DNA of 64,000 bases from the NCBI GenBank assembly GCA_963787235.1, contig CAWBCG010000009.1, positions 8,426 to 72,425 on the forward strand, read 5' to 3'. Under the pieces are notes generated by a model. It was not told the origin of the DNA. It saw only the letters and a program-made list of their open reading frames with translations, and did not search any database. Source of the stretch: an uncultured delta proteobacterium. GTDB taxonomy: Bacteria > Desulfobacterota > Desulfobacteria > Desulfobacterales > SG8-13. The position numbers and the translations under genes are program-made. Positions 9,105 to 62,822 of the stretch are shown here, one piece after another (position 1 is the stretch's first letter; each line of letters starts with the position of its first letter).

Positions 9105-9890
9105 TTAGAAAAGCGTCATGTCTTCGTCTTTCAGATCGGAAACGAACATATGGCCCGGGGCGTGGGTGATCACCAGCGGCAGGGGTGTGGAGGTGGCCGC
9201 CAAGGCCGAGGTAACCCCGCAGGCCCAGAATACCGGAACTTCTCCCGGTTCGATGGTGACCGGGTCGCCGAAATCCGGGCGATCGATGTCCTCGATGCCG
9301 ATTTGGTCCGGATCGCCGATATGGACCGGTGCGCCGTGGGTCAGGTGGAAACGGGTGGTGATCTGGACCGCGCGGACGGCCTGTTCGGGAGTCATCGGCC
9401 GCATGCTGACAACCAGGGGTGCTGAAAACTGGCCGGCCGGGAAGCAGGCGCGCTTGGTGATGTACATGGAAACGTTTTTACCTTCCGTGATGTTTCGGAT
9501 CGGAAGACCGGCGGACTGCAGGGCGTTCTCAAAGGAGAAACTGCAGCCCAGAAGGAAGCTGACCATGTCTTTTCCGAATGTGTCAGTGACGGCTTCGACT
9601 TCTTCCGTCAACTCTCCCTTGCGGTAGATCCGGTAGCGGGGCAGATCCTGACGCAGATCGGCCCCGGGGGCAATTTTAGGCTCGTAGACCCCGGCCTCGA
9701 GAACATCGAGTATCGGACAGGGTTTGGGGTTGCGGACACAGAAGAGAAGAAAGTCAAAGGCTTCCTGCTGCGGCAGCATGACCAGGTTGGCCTGAACAAA
9801 GCCGCGGGCCGCGCCCGAGGTCGGTTTTCGCCACTCTGCGGTGCGAATCCGGTCCCGCAGCTGGGCCGCGGTGAGGTTTTCTGGGGTCAT
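9105..9890 (-). CDS. DUF1445 family putative hydro-lyase (D-glutamate cyclase-like)
   Basis: 261 aa. GFVQANLVMLP, NPKPCPILDV and THAPGHMFV motifs as I recall them for this family. Confidence 0.7.
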   Translation of the reverse strand: MTPENLTAAQLRDRIRTAEWRKPTSGAARGFVQANLVMLPQQEAFDFLLFCVRNPKPCPILDVLEAGVYEPKIAPGADLRQDLPRYRIYRKGELTEEVEAVTDTFGKDMVSFLLGCSFSFENALQSAGLPIRNITEGKNVSMYITKRACFPAGQFSAPLVVSMRPMTPEQAVRAVQITTRFHLTHGAPVHIGDPDQIGIEDIDRPDFGDPVTIEPGEVPVFWACGVTSALAATSTPLPLVITHAPGHMFVSDLKDEDMTLF

Positions 9891-9911: not shown

Positions 9912-10170
9912 GGTTTAGCCGGTTTAGCCCGTTATCCCGTTAGCCCGTTTGCAGGTTAAGCCTGTTCGACACATGGTGGATGGCACGCTTTTGTTGATTG
10001 GAAAACAATGGAATGAGATACCGAATCGTTAAAACAGTTCTATTTAATGAAATCAAATGCTGCAGTCAACCGACACAACTGACTCAACCGGCTCAACGGG
10101 CCAAACGAGCTCAACCGGCTAAACGGACCCAACCGGCTCAACGGGCTAAACCGGCCCAACTGACTCAACC
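9912..10170. repeat. 9-mer-array palindromic intergenic element, copy 1
   Basis: Left array GGTTTAGCC GGTTTAGCC CGTTATCCC... (9912-9968). Core about 9969-10065. Right array of about 12 units TCAACCGGC TCAACGGGC CAAACGAGC... (10066-10170). Ends 4 nt before the aminopeptidase stop codon. Confidence 0.85.
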
Positions 10171-10174
10171 TATT

Positions 10175-11365
10175 TTATACAATATTGACTTCTTCGTTAA
10201 ATTTTCCCAATTGACGCAGGCCGTTGTCCGTGACGACGTGGGTGTTTTCAATGCCGACGACACCGACTCCCGGAAAGATCAGTTTTGGTTCGAGAGCCAC
10301 GATCATGTTCTGCTGAAACTCGAGCCGCTGCCCCTGGGCCAGAAAGGGGTATTCATCCAATTCGATGCCGATGCCGTGACCGATGAAACGGATGCGGCGG
10401 TCACCCACACCCATGAAGTTGTCGGCGTATCCCAGTTCGGTCGCCATGGCGACCGCCATGTCGTAAACGTCGCCGGTTCGAACCCCCGGTTTGGCTTCTT
10501 TCTTTACCATCGACTGCACGGCCAACATGGCCTGGTGCGCCTGAAGCAGTTCATCCGGCAACCCCTCGATGGCGAATATGCGCGTGTGGTCGGACAAGTA
10601 ACCCTGGTGGGCGAAGACATAGTCGAACAGGATCGGTTCGCGGCGCTGGATCGGCCGGAAACCCGGTCCCTGAGCCACGGCCGGGCTCAGCGCCGCGCCG
10701 CCGGTGGGAGAGGCCAGGTAGCTGGGCACGGCGGCCGCCGGTCCGGCCATCAGGTGTCCGTAAAACAGCTCACTGCCCCAAAGGCGCATCCGGATGATCC
10801 CCTGGTGTCCCAGCCGGCGGGCCCGGGCTTCGATCAGTCCGGCCAGCTCGATTTCAGTGATCCCTTCCCGCAGATACTCCCTTACGCTGTCGGCGACCTG
10901 GTCCGAATAACCGGCTGCAGTGGTGATCAGACCGATTTCGTGGTCGGATTTAACCGCCCGGATCAGGCGGACAACAGTCGATATGTCCGAAATCTCGGCT
11001 GCGGAAAAGATGTCGCGGTAGGCGAGGTAGAGGTTGGCGGGCAGGACATCGAGTTCGAGACCCAAACGGCGGGGGAGGGTGTGGCCATTTTGGCGCAGCA
11101 ATTCCGGCAGTTCCTGCGGCCGGGATAGGGGAACAATTTTTCGGAGCGGCGATTCGGCCATGGCCCGTTCAATGTCCTTGCGGACCATCAGCAGCGGTTC
11201 TCCGTCAACCGGCACGAAGAGATGGGCCTGCTGGATGGTGCCGGTAAAATAAAACAGGTCCGAGTTTTGAAGGATCAGCGCCGCATCGATTCCGGTCTTG
11301 TCCAGCCGCTGTTTGAGATGATCGATTCTGGTGTCGATTTCGCTGGATGGTGTGGTAAGGGTCAT
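10175..11365 (-). CDS. M24 family Xaa-Pro aminopeptidase / prolidase-like peptidase
   Basis: HGIGIELDEYPF and VALEPKLIFPGVGVVGIENT metal-site motifs, with a creatinase/prolidase-like N-domain. ATG 11365 (MTLTTPSS, GAGG upstream) is preferred over GTG 11392. Confidence 0.8.
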   Translation of the reverse strand: MTLTTPSSEIDTRIDHLKQRLDKTGIDAALILQNSDLFYFTGTIQQAHLFVPVDGEPLLMVRKDIERAMAESPLRKIVPLSRPQELPELLRQNGHTLPRRLGLELDVLPANLYLAYRDIFSAAEISDISTVVRLIRAVKSDHEIGLITTAAGYSDQVADSVREYLREGITEIELAGLIEARARRLGHQGIIRMRLWGSELFYGHLMAGPAAAVPSYLASPTGGAALSPAVAQGPGFRPIQRREPILFDYVFAHQGYLSDHTRIFAIEGLPDELLQAHQAMLAVQSMVKKEAKPGVRTGDVYDMAVAMATELGYADNFMGVGDRRIRFIGHGIGIELDEYPFLAQGQRLEFQQNMIVALEPKLIFPGVGVVGIENTHVVTDNGLRQLGKFNEEVNIV

Positions 11366-11426
11366 AACCCGCCTCGTTTTAACTTCCGGCACTTCTTTGG
11401 GAATCTCTATGAATCTTTATGAATCA

Positions 11427-12443
11427 TTATGAATCATTAGGCGTCATGCGCACGGACTCGTCGTCATCGATTTTCCAGCAGCGGACGAGGTGATCCGGAG
11501 TGACCGACCGCAACGGGAGATCCGCCTGCCGGCAGGTGTCGTCGCCCTTCGGACAAAAGTCCTGAAAAACGCAGCCTTCGGGCGGCGGTCCCGGTACAAC
11601 GCCGCCTTCTTTCAGTTGAAGGTCCGCTTTTTGGTCGCTGTCGACATCCGGTATGGCCGCCAGCAGCGTTTGCGTGTAAGGGTGCTGCGGGTGGGCATAG
11701 AGTTCTTCTGCCGGCGCATACTCCATGATGTAGCCCTTGTTCATGACGGCGACCTGATTGCAGAGGTATCCTACCACGTTCAGGTCATGCGAAATGAAGA
11801 GGTAACTCAAGCCAAGACGGTCCTGCAAGTCTTTCAACAAATTAATCACTTGGGCCTGAATGGAAACATCCAAAGCCGAAATCGGTTCGTCGCAGATGAT
11901 CAGGGCCGGATCGACGCTCAGTGCGCGGGCAATTCCGATCCGCTGTCGTTGGCCGCCGCTGAACTCATGCGGGTAGCGCCCGGCACTCTCCGGTGACATG
12001 CCGACCATCTCCAGCAGTTCTGCGAGGCGGTCTTTGCGGCGCTGTCCCCGGGGTGTCCCTACAATACGCAGCCCCTCTTCGATCGACTGCCCGACCGTCA
12101 TACGGGGATTGAGCGATCCGTAGGGATCCTGAAAGACAATCTGCATCTGCTTGCGGTACGGCTTCAACTCTCTTTCCGTCAGACGGCTGATATCGTCTTG
12201 TTGAAAGAAAATCAGGCCGTCATCGGGACGCAAAAGCCGCATGATCATACGGGCGACCGTCGATTTGCCGCAACCGCTTTCTCCCACCAGGCCTAATGTT
12301 TGGCCCTGCCGGATCTTGAAATCGACCCCGTTGACGGCTTTTATCCATCCACTGATCCGCAGAAAAAAACCGGAGCGGACCGGAAAATGCTTTTTCAGGT
12401 CACGGACCTCGAGGATGATGTTCTCTTCTGGGTTCGGGTTCAT
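11427..12443 (-). CDS. Oligopeptide/dipeptide ABC transporter ATP-binding protein (OppF/DppF-like)
   Basis: GESGCGKST, FSGGQRQRIGIARAL, ICDEPISALD, and a C-terminal oligopeptide-type extension with Cys residues. Confidence 0.9.
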   Translation of the reverse strand: MNPNPEENIILEVRDLKKHFPVRSGFFLRISGWIKAVNGVDFKIRQGQTLGLVGESGCGKSTVARMIMRLLRPDDGLIFFQQDDISRLTERELKPYRKQMQIVFQDPYGSLNPRMTVGQSIEEGLRIVGTPRGQRRKDRLAELLEMVGMSPESAGRYPHEFSGGQRQRIGIARALSVDPALIICDEPISALDVSIQAQVINLLKDLQDRLGLSYLFISHDLNVVGYLCNQVAVMNKGYIMEYAPAEELYAHPQHPYTQTLLAAIPDVDSDQKADLQLKEGGVVPGPPPEGCVFQDFCPKGDDTCRQADLPLRSVTPDHLVRCWKIDDDESVRMTPNDS

Positions 12444-12466: not shown

Positions 12467-13456
12467 TCATTTACGGTCGCGTGCGAAAAGGACCGGGCAG
12501 CGAGCCTGGTGACCGCCGCCGTAATCGCACATTTGAGGATACTGCTCCCGGCAGCTTTGTACGGCGTGGGGGCAGCGCGGGTGAAAAGGACATCCCGGCG
12601 GTTTGTGGGCCGGGTCGGGGACGGCGCCGGGGATGCTGTAGAGACGCCGTCCTCTTTTGGCGCGCGTGGGCAGTGACGCCAGCAAACCCTGGGTGTAAGG
12701 GTGCTTCGCATCACCAAAGATGTGCCCGGTTTTACCCTGCTCGGCGATAATGCCCGCATACATGACGAAGACCCGATCAGCCACGGCCGATACGACCCCG
12801 AGGTCGTGGGTGATGTAAAGGACCGACATTCGGTGTTTCTGCTGCAGGGCGCCGAAGAGCTTCAAGATCTGGGCCTGAACGGTGACATCCAGCGCCGTGG
12901 TCGGCTCGTCGGCGATCACCAGTTCCGGGTCACAGGCCAGGGCCATGGCGATCATGACCCTCTGGCGTTGTCCACCGCTGAGTTCGTGCGGATAGGCATT
13001 GAGGCGCTCTTCCGCAGAGGGGATCCCCACATCGGTCAAAAGCTGGACACAGCGACGGTGCAGGGCGTCTTCGTCTATTTTCTTGTGGATCCGAATGGCC
13101 TCTCCGATCTGGTCGCCGATTTTGAAAACCGGATTGAGGGAGGTGAGCGGTTCCTGGAAAACCATGGCGATGCGATTGCCTCGAATATGCTGCAGGTCTT
13201 CTTCCCCCAGTTGCAACAGGTCCTCGCCGGCGAAAAGGATGCGCCCTCCCGCAATTTCGCCCGGCGGCTGGTTGACGAGGCCGAGAATGCTGAGGGCCGA
13301 GACGGTCTTGCCGCACCCGGATTCGCCCACCAGGCAGACGGTTTCCTCGCGTCCCACCTCGAAACTGACGCCGTCGACGGCTTTCGCCACGCTGTTTTCG
13401 GCGCCGTGAAAATGGACCTTGAGGTTCTCGACCGATAGAAGGATCTCTTTGTTCAT
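12467..13456 (-). CDS. Oligopeptide/dipeptide ABC transporter ATP-binding protein (OppD/DppD-like)
   Basis: Tracked ORF trimmed to [16 protein letters not shown] (ATG 13456). The rejected 31-codon extension (LNGLNRLNRLNG) is a read-through of the 9-mer array. [25 protein letters not shown]. Confidence 0.9.
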
Positions 13457-13458
13457 TA

Positions 13459-13688
13459 GTCCGTTGGGTCGGTTGGGTCCGTTGAGCCCGTTAAGTCGGT
13501 TGAGTCGGTTGAGCCCGTTGAGTCGGTTGGCCGCCGCATACCATTTCATTAACTTGAACGGTTTTAACGATTCGGTGTCTCATTCCATTGTTTTCCAATC
13601 AACAAAAGTGTGTCACCCACTATGTGTCGATAAGGCTGAACCGGCAAACGGGCTAACGGGCTCAACCGGCTTAACGGGCCCAACCGAC
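13459..13688. repeat. 9-mer-array palindromic intergenic element, copy 2 (core inverted relative to copy 1)
   Basis: Left array GTCCGTTGG GTCGGTTGG GTCCGTTGA GCCCGTTAA GTCGGTTGA... (13459-13532). The core is the reverse complement of the copy 1 core. Right array GGCTGAACC GGCAAACG GGCTAACG GGCTCAACC... (13634-13688). Confidence 0.85.
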
Positions 13689-13689
13689 A

Positions 13690-14859
13690 TCACCGCTCCC
13701 GTAGCCTTGGGTTCAGCGCGTCGCGCAGGCCTTCCCCGAAGAGGTTGAACGCCAGTACGACCACGAGGATGGCGATGCCCGGAATAAACGTGAGCCAAGG
13801 GGCATCGAAGATGAAGTTTTGGCCGTCCGACAGGATGTTGCCCCAGGTGGCATGCGGCGGCGGAACGCCGAAGCCGAGAAAGCTCAGACCGGCTTCGGTA
13901 AGGATGGCCGAGGCAATGCCGAGAGTGGCCGACACCAAGACGGGTGCGACGGCGTTGGGCATCATGTGGCGGAAAATAATTCTTAGATTACCGACACCCA
14001 AGGCTTGGACGGCGGCGACGAAGTCTTGTTCGCGCAGGGCGAGAAATTCGGCGCGCACGAAGCGGGTGGTTCCCATCCAGCTGGTCAGGCCGATGACGAT
14101 CATGATGTTGTAGATGCTGGCCGGCAAAAGGGCCACCACCGTGAGGATCAAAAAGAACGTCGGGAAGCAGAGCATGATGTCCACCAGTCGCATGATCAGC
14201 GTGTCGACGGTGAGGGTCTTGAGGTTAAACAGCCCCATTCCGCGCACGGATTGATGCCTCTTTTGCGTGCGTGCGAAAATAAGCCAAAGAATGACAATGC
14301 CGCCCAGAACCAGCAGTGCTGCTCCCCAGAAGGGTTTTAGAGCGAGCAGGGTGCCGCCGGCGAACAGGATGACCGCAACCAGGAGGTGATCCAGCCGAAC
14401 GGAGTTTTGACCGAAATATCCGGCAATACCCCCAAGAAAAATTCCGATAACGACGGATATGCCGACAGCCACGAAACCGACGGTCAGCGACACCCAGGCG
14501 CCCTGAAGCATTCGGGCGAACACGTCCCGCCCGAGTTCATCGGTACCGAGCAGGTAAATTCCGAAGGAGGGCATTTCATCGGGTTGCAGCGATGCCAGGT
14601 TTGGCCTGGAGAAGGGGGGACGCAGTTTCTCCTGGAGCCGGATGATTGACGGGTCGAGAAACGGTTTGGTGCCGGAGGTCAGCAGCAGACCGACAACGGC
14701 AGTCGTAAAAAACAACAGAAAAAACACCATTCCGATCACTGCCAGGCGGTTCTGCTTGAAGATCGACCAGAACTGTTGCCAGAGGCTGCGTCTGGGGGTC
14801 TGGGGACGTTCGAGTGTGTTTTCCGGTGTGGGTGGCACCGGATGTCGGTTTTGCATCAC
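13690..14859 (-). CDS. Oligopeptide ABC transporter permease (OppC/DppC-like) with a long N-terminal extension
   Basis: 389 aa polytopic protein with a binding-protein-dependent transport inner-membrane motif region (ALREQDFVAAVQALG). ATGA overlap with the upstream permease gene. Confidence 0.85.
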   Translation of the reverse strand: MMQNRHPVPPTPENTLERPQTPRRSLWQQFWSIFKQNRLAVIGMVFFLLFFTTAVVGLLLTSGTKPFLDPSIIRLQEKLRPPFSRPNLASLQPDEMPSFGIYLLGTDELGRDVFARMLQGAWVSLTVGFVAVGISVVIGIFLGGIAGYFGQNSVRLDHLLVAVILFAGGTLLALKPFWGAALLVLGGIVILWLIFARTQKRHQSVRGMGLFNLKTLTVDTLIMRLVDIMLCFPTFFLILTVVALLPASIYNIMIVIGLTSWMGTTRFVRAEFLALREQDFVAAVQALGVGNLRIIFRHMMPNAVAPVLVSATLGIASAILTEAGLSFLGFGVPPPHATWGNILSDGQNFIFDAPWLTFIPGIAILVVVLAFNLFGEGLRDALNPRLRER

Positions 14860-21479: not shown

Positions 21480-21480
21480 T

Positions 21481-21639
21481 GTAACCGTTCACAGGGTTTC
21501 AAAGTGCGATGCGCTTCAAACCACTTAATTGTAAGCGTTTACAGGGTGCCGCAGATGCAAGGCGTTGGGTGCACAGACGTACTTTCGTACTTCAAGTGCC
21601 CGACAACAAAGCAGATGCGGTGCCCTGCGAACGCTTACA
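21481..21639. repeat. Left arm of a about 150-bp inverted repeat pair (itself internally hairpin-forming)
   Basis: Reverse complement of 22150-22297 at roughly 90% identity by hand alignment. The internal imperfect palindrome is bounded by TTGTAAGCGTT...AACGCTTACAA. Confidence 0.85.
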
Positions 21640-21771
21640 AAAAATTGCCGGGCCATCCGGCCTACCCGAACCCATCCGGCTTGGAAGGCCAAAGGTCGAA
21701 AGCATCCCGACGACTTGACCCTGAACCCTCCGACTTTTGCAACGTTGGAATTTCGTCTGTTTCAAAAATAA

Positions 21772-21811
21772 CCGGCGGTCCGTTTAACATCGGACCGCCG
21801 GGTTTTTTTTT
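21772..21811. terminator. Bidirectional rho-independent terminator
   Basis: CCGGCGGTCCG-TTTAACAT-CGGACCGCCGG, followed by T9 on the plus strand and preceded by an A-rich run (T-run on the minus strand). Confidence 0.75.
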
Positions 21812-21861
21812 GAAACGAGCTGTCGAGCCGCTCGCAAGAGAACTATCCGCCTTGACCGGTT

Positions 21862-22014: not shown

Positions 22015-22149
22015 GGTATTTTCTCCTTAAGTTTGAATCTTTTATCACGGTAATCAAGTAGAGTGTAATCACATCCAGCCCGAATTCAACCTCAGCCTGT
22101 GCTCTCGTTTTTATCGGCCTCTGTGGTATAATATTACGTTAACCTGTTG

Positions 22150-22297
22150 GTAAGCGTTCACATGGCACCGCATCTGCTTCGTTGTCGGGCACTTGAAGTA
22201 CAAAAGTACGTCTGCGCGCCCGACGCCTTGCACCTGCGGCACCCTGTAAACGCTTACAATTTGGTTGTTTGAAGCGCATCGGACTTTGAAACCCTGT
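22150..22297. repeat. Right arm of the about 150-bp inverted repeat pair
   Basis: See left arm. Ends about 47 nt upstream of the protease gene start. Confidence 0.85.
22163..22177 (+). promoter_or_regulatory. Sigma-54-type promoter candidate inside the right repeat arm
   Basis: TGGCAC-CGCAT-CTGC. Correct GG-N10-GC spacing, one mismatch to TTGC. Points toward the protease gene at 22344. Confidence 0.35.
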
Positions 22298-22343
22298 GAA
22301 AGGTTACAGCTGTTGCGTTGAGTGCCTGCAAAGTCGGAGGGAT

Positions 22344-47548: not shown

Positions 47549-48469
47549 ATGAACTCCCAACCCGACCTGTCCGTTGATATCGGCGGTATCCGCCTTCGCA
47601 ATCCCGTGATGACCGCATCAGGTACTTTCGGTTATGCCAGGGAGTTTGAAACTTATGTCAATTTGAATCGACTCGGCGGGATCATCGTCAAAGGGCTTTC
47701 CCTTGCGCCTAGCATGGGCAACCGGCCGCCGCGCATCGTCGAAACAGCCTGCGGCATGCTCAATGCCATCGGTCTCGAAAACGTCGGCATAGAGACGTTC
47801 ATTACCGAAAAACTGCCGTTTCTGCAGAAATTATCGACGCCGATCTTTGTCAATATCTACGGCAAGACCGTCGAGGAATACGCCGCCCTGGCGGAGCGGC
47901 TCGAGGCAATCGAAGCGGTTGCAGGCATCGAGGTCAATATTTCATGTCCAAATGTAAAGGCCGGCGGCGTGGCCTTCGGTGTTGACCCTGATGCGGCCGG
48001 CCGGGTAGTGGGCATCGTCAGAAAGAAAACATCCAAGACCCTGATCGTAAAGCTTTCGCCGAACGTCACCGACATCACCGCCATCGCCCGCCGGGCGGAG
48101 GCGGAAGGCGCCGATACTCTCTCGCTGATCAACACCATCACCGGGATGGCCATCGACGTGGTGAGGCGACGTCCGGTGTTGGCCAACGTCACCGGCGGGC
48201 TCTCAGGGCCGGCAATCAAACCGGTGGCCCTGCGCATGGTCTGGCAGGTTTGTCGGGCGGTTGAGGTCCCCGTTATCGGGATCGGAGGGATCACTACCGC
48301 GCGGGATGCGCTGGAGTTCATTATAGCCGGTGCTTCGGCGGTCCAAATTGGAACGGCCAATTTTTTCAACCCCCGCGCGACAATGGACATCCTGGCCGGC
48401 ATTTCCGATTACCTAAAAGAAAACGGTATCACCCGGTTGACCGACCTGGTTGGTAGTTTGGAAGTGTGA
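47549..48469 (+). CDS. pyrD: Dihydroorotate dehydrogenase, class 1 catalytic subunit
   Basis: NPVMTASGTFGY, NAIGLENVG, EVNISCPNV (catalytic Cys), IGIGGI. ATG 47549 preferred over TTG 47534. Confidence 0.85.
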   Translation: MNSQPDLSVDIGGIRLRNPVMTASGTFGYAREFETYVNLNRLGGIIVKGLSLAPSMGNRPPRIVETACGMLNAIGLENVGIETFITEKLPFLQKLSTPIFVNIYGKTVEEYAALAERLEAIEAVAGIEVNISCPNVKAGGVAFGVDPDAAGRVVGIVRKKTSKTLIVKLSPNVTDITAIARRAEAEGADTLSLINTITGMAIDVVRRRPVLANVTGGLSGPAIKPVALRMVWQVCRAVEVPVIGIGGITTARDALEFIIAGASAVQIGTANFFNPRATMDILAGISDYLKENGITRLTDLVGSLEV

Positions 48470-48686
48470 AACGGTTGAGCCTGTTTAGCCCGTTGAGCCG
48501 GTTGTGCCCGTTATGTTCATCAAGTTGCTTGAAATAATACGATGTTCGTTATTTTAAACGCGGAAGTTTGTCATTAGAAGGGCTCAAAAACATAATCCAG
48601 CCAGGCTGGCAAACAGCCATTTCACCTGAATGGAATGTAGAGTTCAACCGGCTTAACGGGCTCAACCGGCTCAACGGGCCAAACCG
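48470..48686. repeat. 9-mer-array palindromic intergenic element, copy 3
   Basis: Starts the base after the pyrD stop. Left array CGGTTGAGCC TGTTTAGCC CGTTGAGCC GGTTGTGCC. 128-bp core. Right array TTCAACCGG CTTAACGGG CTCAACCGG CTCAACGGG CCAAACCGA. Confidence 0.85.
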
Positions 48687-48701: not shown

Positions 48702-49232
48702 GTGAAGATAATCGTTGCAGTGACCGTTTTTACCGTATTGTTAGGGGCTGTTCCGGCGTTTGCCGAGGAGTTGCAGGTTGGGATGCAGACGTCCGACTGG
48801 GCTTTTAAAGACGCGGAAGGCAAGATCTATAATATGGCGAGTTGGGAGGGGAGGGTACTTTTGATCAATTACGTCGATCCCGACGTTTCGGACCTGAACG
48901 ATCACTTTACGGATGCCATGAAGAAAGCCAAGGACGACGGACGGTTAACGAATGAAAATTACAAGGGTATCGGCATTGCCGACTGTGCAGCCACCTGGAA
49001 GCCCAACTTTGCTATTCGCGCCATTGCGGGAGCAAAGGCCAAGAAGTACAACACCACCATTTTGTTCGACTACGACGCTTCACTGCGTAAAGCCTGGGGC
49101 CTTCAGAAAGACACGGCCAACGTCGTTCTGCTGGATAAAAATCATGTCTGCCGGGCTATCATCCGGGGTAGGGTTCCGGATGACCAGGTGGAAAAACTCG
49201 TGCAATTGGCCGTTGATCTGCAAGGAAAGTAG
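48702..49232 (+). CDS. Secreted thioredoxin-fold protein, YtfJ-like (tentative)
   Basis: AAGGAGG SD with a GTG start. Signal peptide VAVTVFTVLLGAVPAFA. VLLINYVDPD...ANVVLLDKN pattern. The family call is from memory only. Confidence 0.5.
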   Translation: MKIIVAVTVFTVLLGAVPAFAEELQVGMQTSDWAFKDAEGKIYNMASWEGRVLLINYVDPDVSDLNDHFTDAMKKAKDDGRLTNENYKGIGIADCAATWKPNFAIRAIAGAKAKKYNTTILFDYDASLRKAWGLQKDTANVVLLDKNHVCRAIIRGRVPDDQVEKLVQLAVDLQGK

Positions 49233-49462
49233 GTTGTGCCGGTTAGGCCCGTTGAGCCCGTTTAGCCGGTTGAACCGGTTAGGCGGTTGAGTTTTTTAGG
49301 ATAGATGAACTAAACTACAATACGGAAAGTTGGCAATAAGGATATTTCAGTCAGAAAAAAATGTCAGCAACGACGTTACCTAAATGACTGAATAGCCACA
49401 CTGGCTTACGGACCTAACGGGCTCAACCGGCCAAACCGGCTAAACTGCCCTGCGGGCCAAAC
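49233..49462. repeat. 9-mer-array palindromic intergenic element, copy 4
   Basis: Left array GGTTGTGCC GGTTAGGCC CGTTGAGCC CGTTTAGCC GGTTGAACC. About 120-bp AT-rich core. Right array CCTAACGGG CTCAACCGG CCAAACCGG CTAAACTGC. Fills the gap between two convergent stop codons. Confidence 0.85.
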
Positions 49463-50359
49463 CTAAGCGCCGATGATCAGGCGGCCGGAGGTGCAGGCGC
49501 GACAGGAACCCGAACGGAAGCGGGCCGAATCGGAGAGCGACAGGACGCCGACGATGCGGGCGGGGTCGTCTTTGTAAACGAAGAGCCGCTGGACGTCTTT
49601 TAGCAGCATTTGCTGCAGTGCCAGGGAAAGGAAATCGTTTGCGTCGCAGCTCAGAACCGGGTGTCGCATGATGGCCTGAGCCGGTGTGCCGGTTTTTTCG
49701 CCATGTTTATATGCGATAACCAGGTCGGTTTTCGAAATGACGCCAGCGGCGTGACCGGCAGGGTTCCGAATGAGGACCGCCCCGCAGCGGTGGGTCGTGA
49801 GGTCCTCGATCACCTCGGCCAGGGTATCATCCGTTTTGCAGGCCCGCACCGATGTCGTCATCACGTCTCCGACGCGCAAACGCGAGCGATTCGTTTCATT
49901 TTCGTTGCCGCGACGCACCTTTGAAACACTTTTCCCGCACGCTCTGCAATAACGGTAGAGCAAACCGACGACGTCCGGATAGGCCAGCGTGCCGATGACC
50001 CGGTCGGTTTCGGCACCGCTCACATACAGCCGGTGAACGCCTCTTGCGTGCATCAGGTCGATGGCCGACTCGAGGCTGTCGTCGGGAAAGCAGAACAGCG
50101 GTGGTGCGGCCATGATGTCGGCTGCTGCCGCTTCAACCGGCAGGTCGGCATAGAACGCGCCGATGAGATCTGTTTTGGATACGACCCCGACCGGCCGGTC
50201 ATCTTCTGCGGTCACAAGCACCGCAGCGACCTTGTTCTTGACCATTCTGTTGGTGCAATCGGATAACGTGGTCTCCCGTGACACCCGGATCACGCGCTTT
50301 CGCATCGCTTCCTGAACCAGCATCCCTCTCAATACGCTTCGCCGTTCGATGAAGACCAT
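49463..50359 (-). CDS. Four-CBS-domain protein with CxxC motifs
   Basis: 298 aa, four CBS-like repeats. YRYCRACGKS between the pairs and a C-terminal GSCRACTSG. Confidence 0.75.
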   Translation of the reverse strand: MVFIERRSVLRGMLVQEAMRKRVIRVSRETTLSDCTNRMVKNKVAAVLVTAEDDRPVGVVSKTDLIGAFYADLPVEAAAADIMAAPPLFCFPDDSLESAIDLMHARGVHRLYVSGAETDRVIGTLAYPDVVGLLYRYCRACGKSVSKVRRGNENETNRSRLRVGDVMTTSVRACKTDDTLAEVIEDLTTHRCGAVLIRNPAGHAAGVISKTDLVIAYKHGEKTGTPAQAIMRHPVLSCDANDFLSLALQQMLLKDVQRLFVYKDDPARIVGVLSLSDSARFRSGSCRACTSGRLIIGA

Positions 50360-60991: not shown

Positions 60992-61374
60992 TTTGTATCC
61001 TTTTCGTGATTAATCTTTCTCTTTAGGTTGAGCCGTGACCGGTCGACAGGACAAACCGATTCCGCGTGAACCATTGCGGATTGGCTGGATTATGTTGGAG
61101 AAATCGGGTCCACAGCAGTTAGGTCATCGAGGCGGCGCCAGGCTGCAAGCCCGTGCGGCCACTGTCGGCCTTTTGCATGGCGTCGAACGACATGAAATGG
61201 ATTGGATCGACTGACAGTCGATCCAAATGGTGATCCGTTATTCTCACGCTTTTACCTTTGCAGTTGCTTTGATTAAACTTGATCGAAAGAATTATCAGAC
61301 TCTTCATTTCCCAATACGAATTGCCGAATGGATTATCTCCTTTCATGTGGTGTTTGGACACCGTCAAAAATGGT
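60992..61374. repeat. 383-bp direct repeat, copy A (upstream of the glucan synthase gene)
   Basis: Aligns base for base with 62440-62822 (offset 1448 bp, no indels seen, roughly 92-95% identity by eye). Contains the 21-bp palindrome GGATCGACTGACAGTCGATCC at 61204-61224 and tracked ORF 61119..61367. Confidence 0.9.
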
Positions 61375-62439: not shown

Positions 62440-62822
62440 TTTGTATCCTTTTCGTGATTAATCTTTTTCTTTGGGTTGAGCCGTGATCGGCCGACAGGAC
62501 AAACCGATTCCGATTGAACCATTGCTGATTGGCTGGATTGTGCTGGAGAAATCGTGTCCACAGCAGTTAGGTCATCGACGCGGCGCCAAGCTGCAAGCCC
62601 GTGCGGCCACTGTCGTCCTTTTGCATGGCGTCGAACGAAATGAAATGGATTGGATCGACTGACAGTCGATCCAACTGGTGAGCCGTGATTCTCACGCTTT
62701 TACCTTCGCAGTTGCTCTGATTAAACTTGATCGAAAGAATTATCAGACTCTTCATTTTCCAATACGAATTGCTGAATGGATTATCTCCTTTCATGTGGTA
62801 TTTGTTCACCGTCAAAAATGGT
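62440..62822. repeat. 383-bp direct repeat, copy B (upstream of the GDSL gene)
   Basis: See copy A. Palindrome at 62652-62672. Tracked ORF 62567..62815. Confidence 0.9.

Follow-up and report, generated by a model that had tools for sequence, protein, structure and literature searches.

A 64,000-nucleotide (nt) stretch of contig CAWBCG010000009.1 (assembly GCA_963787235.1, positions 8,426 to 72,425 of the forward strand) from an uncultured delta proteobacterium of the Desulfobacterales lineage SG8-13, called the window below, carries four intergenic elements, each built of two inverted arrays of a degenerate 9-nt unit around an AT-rich core. These elements belong to a family whose arms are the arrays that flank one clade (clade B) of genes for PF05635 proteins; the array unit co-varies with the protein clade, the elements occupy spacers from a stop codon to the next start, and whole elements are copied duplicatively within one genome, as the first two window copies were. 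The explanation we favour, with confidence a little better than even, is that the four copies are miniatures, lacking an open reading frame (ORF), of a family of selfish hairpin elements that resemble the intervening sequences (IVS) of rRNA, lie in operon mRNA and have full-length members that carry a PF05635 gene.

The first-pass annotation of the window, made from its letters alone, had proposed four segments that share one plan, and reading of the sequence, pattern counts and a unit scan agree in finding them at 9912-10170, 13459-13689, 48470-48686 and 49232-49462. Each has the form 5'-(SGTTNRGCC)n, an AT-rich core of about 95-130 nt, (GGCYNAACS)n-3'. A two-unit pattern (GGYTNARCC twice, with at most 3 mismatches) matches 41 times in the window against 2.3 times expected from shuffled sequence, and 36 of the 41 matches fall inside the four segments; a stricter 25-nt pattern gives 7 matches against 0 expected, all of them within the segments. 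Scanning the 64 kb for the unit itself returns exactly four left and four right arrays, invariably in the order left to right, and Tandem Repeats Finder (TRF) detects arrays of period 9 in the elements, with 4-12 copies each and 69-81% matches, that is, head-to-tail repeats of the 5-11-nt-unit kind in non-coding DNA. GC content is 55-66% in the arrays, 35-40% in the cores and 54.7% in the window as a whole. The unit GGCYNAACS is not self-complementary, and its pairing requires the opposite array. The annotation had given a 9-bp unit with about 5-8 units per left array; the 9-mer stands, but about 18% of the family's units are 8-mers, the arms are unequal (in copy 1 about 5 units on one side and about 11 on the other), and the outermost units have the form GGTT...AACC.

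Stop codons are present in all three sense frames of every window copy; the elements are therefore not coding, as had been claimed from the start, and the ORFs that run through them are artefacts. An ORF finder produces these at 13419-13748 (plus strand), 12467-13549 (minus strand) and 9998-11128 (plus strand), with for example a 31-amino acid (aa) N-terminal extension of oppD from an ATG at 13549, and ORFs called through arrays (the LNGLNR... type) call for caution in annotation generally. The elements are not CRISPR loci (palindromic repeats that are short, clustered and regularly interspaced) either, and the annotation was right to exclude these: the 9-nt units are contiguous, without spacers, and form two inverted arrays, whereas CRISPR loci consist of 23-50-nt direct repeats and unique spacers of similar length.

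Each window copy starts 0-4 nt past a stop codon and extends to whichever signal comes next, be it a ribosome-binding site, a start codon or another stop codon, so that the elements fill their gaps as first described. Their parts are as follows.

9912-9971, copy 1 left array: about 5 degenerate SGTTNRGCC units; read along the minus-strand operon, a GGCYNAACS-type array just 5' of the Shine-Dalgarno sequence (SD) and start of the D-Glu cyclase gene (ATG at 9890).
9972-10065, copy 1 core: 38% GC; 91% identical over 88 nt to the copy 2 core, inverted.
10066-10170, copy 1 right array: about 11 GGCYNAACS units; the M24 peptidase gene (10175-11392, minus strand) has its stop 4 nt away.
13459-13532, copy 2 left array: 8 units; 2-5 nt from the oppD ATG (13456, minus strand), with no SD between.
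13533-13633, copy 2 core: 40% GC; reverse complement of the copy 1 core.
13634-13689, copy 2 right array: about 6 units; abuts the oppC stop codon (13690-13692, minus strand).
48470-48512, copy 3 left array: 4-5 units; immediately 3' of the dihydroorotate dehydrogenase TGA (48467-48469).
48513-48640, copy 3 core: 39% GC; orthologous to the cores of loci L046 and L040 in two other species.
48568-48596, plus strand, promoter-like site in the copy 3 core: TTGTCA-17-CATAAT, facing ytfJ; a consensus match, with a putative function.
48641-48686, copy 3 right array: 5 units; 3 nt before the AAGGAGG SD of ytfJ (GTG at 48702).
49232-49291, copy 4 left array: 6 units; the last base of the ytfJ TAG stop serves as its first G.
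49258-49296, copy 4 terminator-like hairpin and T-run: overlaps the end of the left array.
49292-49401, copy 4 core: 35% GC.
49402-49462, copy 4 right array: 5-6 units; abuts the stop (49463-49465) of a convergent CBS-domain gene.

Pfam assignments place copy 1 between an M24 (prolidase-type, pepQ) peptidase gene and a D-glutamate cyclase gene, in the same minus-strand gene string as copy 2, which lies between an oppC-type permease gene and an oppD ATPase gene of an opp operon; copy 3 separates a dihydroorotate dehydrogenase gene from a YtfJ-like gene, and copy 4 separates the latter from the convergent CBS-domain gene. Copies 1 and 2 are one element in opposite orientation (83% complementary over 203 nt). 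The annotation had aligned their cores at about 88% identity over about 90 bp; the shared core is confirmed, but it had missed that the two copies are inverted. Where a start codon follows with an SD, the arrays leave room for it: copy 1 leaves 21 nt free before the D-Glu cyclase ATG, with the SD GAAGGAA inside them, and the right array of copy 3 stops 16 nt before the ytfJ GTG, with AAGGAGG uncovered. The first hexamer of the promoter-like site in core 3, TTGTCA, is kept in L046 and L040, whose second hexamers read CATATT and CAGATT. Judged from such strings, it appears that cores can host ordinary signals (promoter-like in core 3, a terminator-like hairpin in copy 4).

Several other candidate functions of the cores and arrays were rejected. 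TGGCAC-N5-TTG-like strings that might be sigma-54 promoters are not conserved between copies 1 and 2 or in orthologues; a 19-aa ORF in core 1 lacks its ATG in copy 2, and its substitutions are mostly non-synonymous; backup stop codons, in frame in copy 3 and not in copy 4, are not a general role. The cores contain no conserved match to the integration host factor (IHF) consensus. The unit resembles a 16S rRNA loop, which we take to be probable coincidence.

The family is not confined to the window, as the annotation's proposal of a repeat family presumed. Species-representative genomes were scanned with the 25-nt pattern, and at least 115 stretches matched. Among the matches listed, the majority are in metagenome-assembled genomes (MAGs) of Desulfobacterales or 'Deltaproteobacteria', and complete left-core-right elements are present also in two Omnitrophota MAGs and one Abditibacteriales MAG (phyla as labelled, binning taken as is). 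Scattered matches in actinomycetes and other high-GC genomes are mostly single arrays of one orientation, many of which, judged by their frame, look like coding repeats; viral contigs gave only one-orientation arrays of this coding type, apparently encoding Gly-Leu-Asn (GGN-CTC-AAC), and no left-right elements. After filtering there are at least 44 complete elements, with loops of 6-290 nt. Their units give the logo G-G-C-[T>C]-[C>A,T]-A-A-C-[C/G], part of which is fixed by the unit-splitting rule itself; the heptad AACSGGC is nearly invariant within them, and the logo is unchanged in host loci from 45% to 69% GC. Array pairs are oriented left to right in 42 cases and right to left in one, which brackets a ytfJ gene. 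Inspection of 45 pairs of element ends revealed no consistent target-site duplications. Within 8 kb of the elements at 65 loci the only recurrent neighbours are generic ABC ATPase and two-component system genes, with no recurrent transposase, in line with what the annotation had noted for the window, and no recurrent RAYT (the tyrosine transposase associated with repetitive extragenic palindromes, REPs). Matches between the cores of the 44 elements number only 7, most of them between orthologous or neighbouring elements. A copy density of about 20-60 per Mb can be extrapolated from the 4 copies in the 64-kb window and from the presence of a second element in about 9 of 60 loci of eight kilobases each. 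One spacer in another genome (L018, 560-900) combines a left array of two units, a stretch of the CTAAAGTG type, a separate long inverted repeat (CCAGGTCTGGGCCAGGG...CCCTGGCCCAGACCTG) and a right array of nine units, a mixture that resembles the mosaics of bacterial interspersed mosaic elements (BIMEs).

Some members of the family, in other Desulfobacterota, carry a gene. In the core of L116, whose arms are of the GGCTCAACS type with 16 units on one side, an ORF matches PF05635 ('23S rRNA-intervening sequence protein') at E = 5.9e-25, and in the core of L137, an element at an oppC-oppD junction with CTAAAGTG-type arms, another does so at E = 4.7e-22. Homologues of the L116 protein (clade B) number 1422 at E <= 1e-10, mostly on short contigs; wherever their context was fetched, the genes lie in sense orientation, with their own SD, between left and right GGCTCAACS-type arrays. 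These loci represent three junction types: imuB|dnaE2 (L071, L116, L242, L245, L249, L252), GH127-like|glycosyltransferase GT4 (L260), and CCG-domain protein|unknown (L264, L265). Homologues of the L137 protein (clade A) number at least 7680 at E <= 1e-15 and at the fetched loci always lie between xCTAAAGTG and CACTTTAGx arrays (the CTAAAGTG unit type), at six junction types: oppC|oppD; upstream of imuB; RND membrane fusion protein (MFP)|transporter; RACo|CooC in the acetyl-CoA synthase operon; DUF58|DUF8429; and RND MFP with the downstream side cut by a contig end. In RNA form the two units read GGCUCAACS (clade B) and CACUUUAGN (clade A). The clades are internally 62-90% and 71-84% identical and mutually at most about 46% identical over short stretches, and no locus mixes clade and unit type (15 loci, 8 versus 7, at 9 junction types, 3 versus 6). 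In L249 the two clades occur together, as one gene of each at a distance of 1.3 kb, and each gene is flanked by its own unit type, the clade A gene lying just upstream of imuB. The junction between imuB (a Y-family polymerase gene) and dnaE2 holds a PF05635 gene with arrayed arms in many Desulfobacterota. In minimum-free-energy folds of the full-length relatives 21-61 long-range pairs connect the two arrays over the ORF.

The ORF in these elements is about 120 aa long. Both clades match TIGR02436 'four helix bundle protein', clade B matches PDB entry 2GSC, which was deposited as five chains, and PADLOC has no match for the PF05635-type protein. At the oppD-oppF junction of L137 (4023-4480) a decayed PF05635 fragment, of which about 35 aa are recognisable, lies between inverted TAAAGTGACC / ACTTTAGTC arrays; the ORF can thus decay in place, and this copy appears to be an ORF-bearing element in the course of becoming ORF-less. 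L264 and L265 encode an identical protein, and their right arrays differ in length by 18 nt. In L248 (1-560) an identical clade B gene precedes a right array that breaks off after a single unit, with a short-chain dehydrogenase gene next in line, an arrangement that is either a second insertion site or a repeat-borne assembly chimera.

The elements are closely fitted between genes. Gene calls in the fetched loci follow a longest-ORF heuristic, with L071 resolved by reading the sequence. The elements lie between co-directional genes in 31 cases and convergent genes in 4, with 1 doubtful divergent case (short ORFs overlapping arrays) and 8 unclassifiable ones; if about 15% of spacers are divergent, finding 0-1 divergent among 36 has a probability of roughly 0.003-0.02. 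Between co-directional genes, arrays begin a median of 4 nt after the stop codon and end a median of 17.5 nt before the next start, the latter distance being within 30 nt in 22 of 28 cases. Of 23 downstream starts whose spacers were read by eye, 10 have no SD between array and start, and at the junctions without an SD the predicted stem closes 0-18 nt past the stop and mostly 3-28 nt before the start.

Comparison of orthologous junctions shows that the elements are long-lived at a locus, change by slippage of units and are now and then copied whole. L046 and L040 carry elements at both ytfJ junctions. The ytfJ genes of the window and L046 are 92% identical overall and 83% identical at third codon positions; core 3 is about 80-85% identical between these two, and about 81-85% identical to the L046 and L040 cores together, which is close to the third-position value and near neutral. 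The arrays have gained or lost whole units between the window and L046, with differences of +18 nt in the left array and +16 nt in the right. In the metagenome relative L118 (OppF 75% identical) the oppC-oppD junction is occupied by a full element, its core barely recognisable, and the peptidase junction by a right array only, and for this reason window copy 1 probably arose by inverted copying of copy 2, as far as such comparison can tell. A second pair of neighbouring, mutually inverted copies is present in L022; the cores of other loci are otherwise unrelated. In 79 more distant opp loci (470 kb) there are no GGCTCAACS arrays. The oppC-oppD gaps that could be measured fall into two groups, small ones of about -16 to +62 nt in relatives without a large insert, many of them near zero, and expanded ones of 111-524 nt.

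Folding supports the stem that the architecture predicts. The sense-strand stop-to-start intervals of the four copies fold at -89 to -104 kcal/mol, against -60 to -77 kcal/mol for shuffled sequences (z = -5.6 to -6.5, with 0 of 200 shuffles as stable in each of the four copies), so the elements do fold better than shuffled controls, and every one of the four minimum-free-energy folds joins the left array to the right.

Taken with the positions, these folds suggest how the elements might be tolerated. The element would be transcribed inside the operon mRNA, where its arms could zip in a register-tolerant way into a long imperfect stem that draws the upstream stop and the downstream start together; such proximity would let operon expression or translational coupling survive an insertion of about 230 nt. 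Such coupling is best illustrated by oppD: it lacks an SD, and in several relatives without the element its orthologues overlap oppC or abut it. RNase III would probably cut the stem, as it does in rRNA intervening sequences, and leftover half-stems would cap the ends of the cistrons. Spread and upkeep of the consensus would need a sequence-specific factor, for which the pentameric PF05635 protein is the best candidate.

A number of observations count against this explanation. The window has no PF05635 gene and its four cores show no trace of one (the idea that they are decayed PF05635 genes was rejected for lack of similarity), and among the window and the 115 pattern-derived loci only L071 and L116 have such genes; the association of clade B protein and array rests on the three junction types given above. 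About 17 single arrays, or half elements, exist, the loci were collected by a pattern that favours well-preserved arrays, and one array of copy 4 has decayed in L046. The stem itself shows no sign of selection on individual pairs. Its mismatches have no G·U bias (37 sense G·U, 49 antisense G·U and 100 transversions), complementarity of an arm to its own partner (0.502) equals that to foreign arms from the other 43 elements (0.503; Mann-Whitney p = 0.66), the two arms do not correlate in unit number (rho = 0.18), and no compensatory evolution is seen in the arms. We therefore conclude that pairing is a by-product of both arms fitting one consensus, a zipper that closes in many registers, and is not selected pair by pair. 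The stem that the annotation had proposed is accordingly upheld as far as folding goes, but not as regards compensatory or G·U evidence for individual pairs.

Some of these points would also be expected if the arrays were purely mutational, that is, simple-sequence arrays of the short tandemly repeated repetitive (STRR) or long simple-sequence repeat (LSSR) type generated by replication slippage in tolerant spacers, with no function, mobility or partner and with incidental inversion. Slippage would account for whole-unit indels between species and between near-identical strains, for cores that evolve at about the synonymous rate, for the lack of covariation and the unmatched arm lengths, and for the abundance of other 7-10-nt arrays in related contigs and of different units by lineage at the oppC-oppD junction; LSSRs with 5-11-nt units are moreover known scattered among bacteria (PMC4679880). 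What needs explanation, however, is the constancy of the consensus GGC-YN-AAC-S, which recurs at dozens of unrelated loci, in GC backgrounds of 45-69% and in three phyla (as labelled), because independent slippage would let each locus drift and would not keep it. Nor does slippage predict the 42:1 polarity, the copying of whole elements including their cores, or a unit type that follows the enclosed PF05635 clade without exception, and we regard it as unlikely.

A constant consensus is what one would expect of iteron clusters, binding sites of a sequence-specific DNA- or RNA-binding regulator that marks gene ends or starts and tunes translation or transcription, with the hairpin being secondary. 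The nearly invariant heptad, arrays that reach right up to starts lacking an SD, the existence of single arrays and a consensus common to different GC backgrounds all agree with this. However, GUUGAGCC after stops and GGCUCAAC before starts are exact reverse complements, which iterons leave unexplained without pairing or terminal-inverted-repeat logic, the orientation of single arrays would follow just as well from their being what is left of full elements, and the neighbouring genes have no common function. The only candidate regulator found is the PF05635 protein, which leads back to the explanation we favour; the iteron idea overlaps with that of a PF05635 partner, and as a separate explanation we judge it to be slightly less likely than slippage.

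The annotation's suggestion of a non-autonomous mobile element fits the full-length relatives with their PF05635 gene, but not the missing target-site duplications, the unrelated cores or the absence of a transposase. [quoted passage not shown] Fixed terminal polarity with outer ends GGTT...AACC, copies in both orientations, several copies per genome and spread across phyla would suit it; the 45 element ends without duplications, cores mostly unrelated between loci, 65 loci without a recurring transposase within 8 kb, persistence at orthologous junctions with no presence/absence pattern among close relatives, and a 120-aa four-helix-bundle protein as the sole type of ORF ever found inside do not. 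It is similarly hard to credit a transcription terminator or attenuator between genes, in spite of the strong stem directly past stop codons and of copy 4 with its convergent genes, local hairpin and T-run, when copies 1-3 have no T-tract after the right arm, 31 of 36 classifiable copies lie in co-directional strings (including oppC-oppD, where termination would silence essential partners) and downstream starts often have no SD or promoter of their own.

The closest known counterparts of these elements are the IVS of 23S rRNA (for example in Coxiella, Leptospira and Salmonella). The Coxiella IVS has been described as a 'selfish genetic element' with complementary borders, an S23p ORF in the loop, excision by RNase III and strain-variable heptamer repeats; it is inherited vertically after insertion, and S23p is a homopentameric four-helix-bundle toroid (PMC4990558). 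PF05635 proteins also resemble Avd of diversity-generating retroelements (PMC10053308). [quoted passage not shown] The differences are that IVS reside in helix 25 or 45 of 23S rRNA, where none of the present copies is found, all of them being in intercistronic or convergent spacers between protein-coding genes; that the arms here consist of 4-16 degenerate 9-mers and those of IVS of one unique inverted repeat; and that ORF-less copies here far outnumber ORF-bearing ones. Excision by RNase III is carried over to the present elements by analogy.

The nearest non-coding precedents are heptamer arrays. Cyanobacterial STRRs are 7-bp repeats able to form a hairpin, for example in the hupS-hupL spacer; their function is unknown, and stabilisation of transcripts or translational coupling has been proposed (PMC2670836). 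They share with the present elements short tandem units in operon spacers and the capacity for a hairpin, and differ in having an exact 7-bp unit (here a degenerate 9-nt unit, with the 8-nt variants mentioned above) and heterocystous cyanobacteria as hosts (here Desulfobacterales, Omnitrophota and Abditibacteriales MAGs); the strict left-then-right order is peculiar to the present elements, and no link of STRRs to PF05635 is described in the literature found. The TAACTGA heptamer arrays of marine Beggiatoaceae, cyanobacteria and Bacteroidetes end just upstream of start codons, often without an SD, and their patchy distribution across phyla suggests horizontal spread by no evident mechanism (MacGregor 2015; PMC4679880). 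The present arrays likewise end a few nt from starts, often lack an SD and occur in a patchy set of phyla. TAACTGA arrays are, however, direct repeats of 2-6 copies with an inverted partner in 1 of 170, whereas here inverted pairs are the rule and the left array lies at the upstream stop.

Other families are more distant. REP, BIME and REPIN elements are likewise high-copy intergenic palindromic elements of transcribed spacers, with lineage-specific sequence and a co-varying cognate gene; the REP/RAYT report describes a cognate gene flanked by repeats whose sequence co-varies with the protein clade (PMC2817692). A REP is a 20-40-nt imperfect palindrome that folds alone, whereas the present unit is a non-palindromic tandem 9-mer, and RAYT is an IS200/IS605-type tyrosine transposase, whereas the partner here is a four-helix bundle. 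MITEs and mycobacterial interspersed repetitive units (MIRUs) are also small non-coding intergenic repeats; the present elements have no target-site duplications, conserved interior or related transposase, and a coupling mini-ORF is impossible in them with three frames closed. Correia elements, an example of MITEs, are targets of RNase III and can contain promoters; MIRUs lie between operon genes. The unit fits the core-site consensus of integron attC sites (GTTRRRY / RYYYAAC), which also form imperfect hairpins between genes, but attC has the order RYYYAAC...GTTRRRY whichever strand is read and the present elements GTTRRRY...RYYYAAC in 42 of 43 array pairs, their sites are tandemly arrayed, and they are flanked by conserved housekeeping operons with no integrase. 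The annotation had recognised no catalogued type of repeat. Rfam gives no match in the window at the gathering score (nor any rRNA) and none at E <= 1 over the four elements, and our literature searches, whose coverage was incomplete, found neither the array sequence nor such elements described, but STRR hairpins and IVS do offer precedent. On present comparisons the IVS-like plan is already known, and its arrayed-arm version between operon genes appears not to be described in the literature searched.

A wider proposal, which we offer tentatively and consider clearly less probable than the one for the window copies, is that stand-alone PF05635/TIGR02436 proteins (S23p and Avd-like pentamers) are the clade-specific, sequence-specific partners of the arrays of their own elements, an as yet unrecognised class of selfish hairpin elements, as RAYT proteins are of REPs, and seed ORF-less miniatures into intercistronic junctions of several phyla, with 23S IVS and at least part of the STRR-type arrays belonging to the same system. 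If true, this would join STRR-like intergenic hairpins, IVS that fragment 23S rRNA and the large 'four helix bundle protein' family of unknown function. With thousands of close PF05635 relatives in these searches, it is a testable hypothesis that the protein recognises the arrayed units flanking its own gene. It would also describe how an insert of about 230 nt can sit in an operon, even against a start without an SD, and leave the operon unbroken, and the family would explain long 'empty' intercistronic gaps and assembly breaks in Desulfobacterota MAGs.

Other repeats were noticed in the same surroundings. Expanded oppC-oppD gaps in relatives contain elements of like plan with other units, namely 9-10-mers of the xCTAAAGTG / CACTTTAGx type (L158, L142, L143, L147, L137), or else units of the GGATTKCGG type (L139), AGGAGCC 7-mers (L145) or a plain long palindrome (L122); CACGAAAA/TTTCGTGC units are also among these fillers (L122, L129, L137, L139, L142, L143, L145, L147, L158). 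TRF over the contigs of opp relatives reports many 7-10-nt arrays, several of them inverted pairs, with heptamer arrays abundant. A 10-bp direct tandem repeat of 3.9 copies occupies 11401-11439 of the window (plus strand GAATCTTTAT, minus strand ATGATTCATA-like). It covers the end of oppF together with the short spacer that precedes the M24 peptidase gene; this third junction of the operon has a different unit and no inverted partner.

A second, unrelated repeat family in the window is an element of about 160 nt, present in two inverted copies (21480-21641 and 22147-22308, 91% complementary) that flank about 500 nt; each copy holds its own palindrome TTGTAAGCGTTTACAGGGTGCCGCAGATGC ... GCAGATGCGGTGCCCTGCGAACGCTTACAA. 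Between them, at 21770-21812, is a strong terminator-like hairpin with a T-run (AACCGGCGGTCCG...CGGACCGCCGGGTTTTTTTTT), and in another species a sequence related to this element adjoins a GGCTCAACS-type array (L103, 1770-1900). Finally, two 300-nt direct repeats (60992-61291 and 62440-62739), 94% identical and 1448 nt apart, each with a palindrome TTGGATCGACTGACAGTCGATCCAA, lie upstream of two consecutive minus-strand genes, one of which encodes a 2916-aa protein of the GH94/glycoamylase type.

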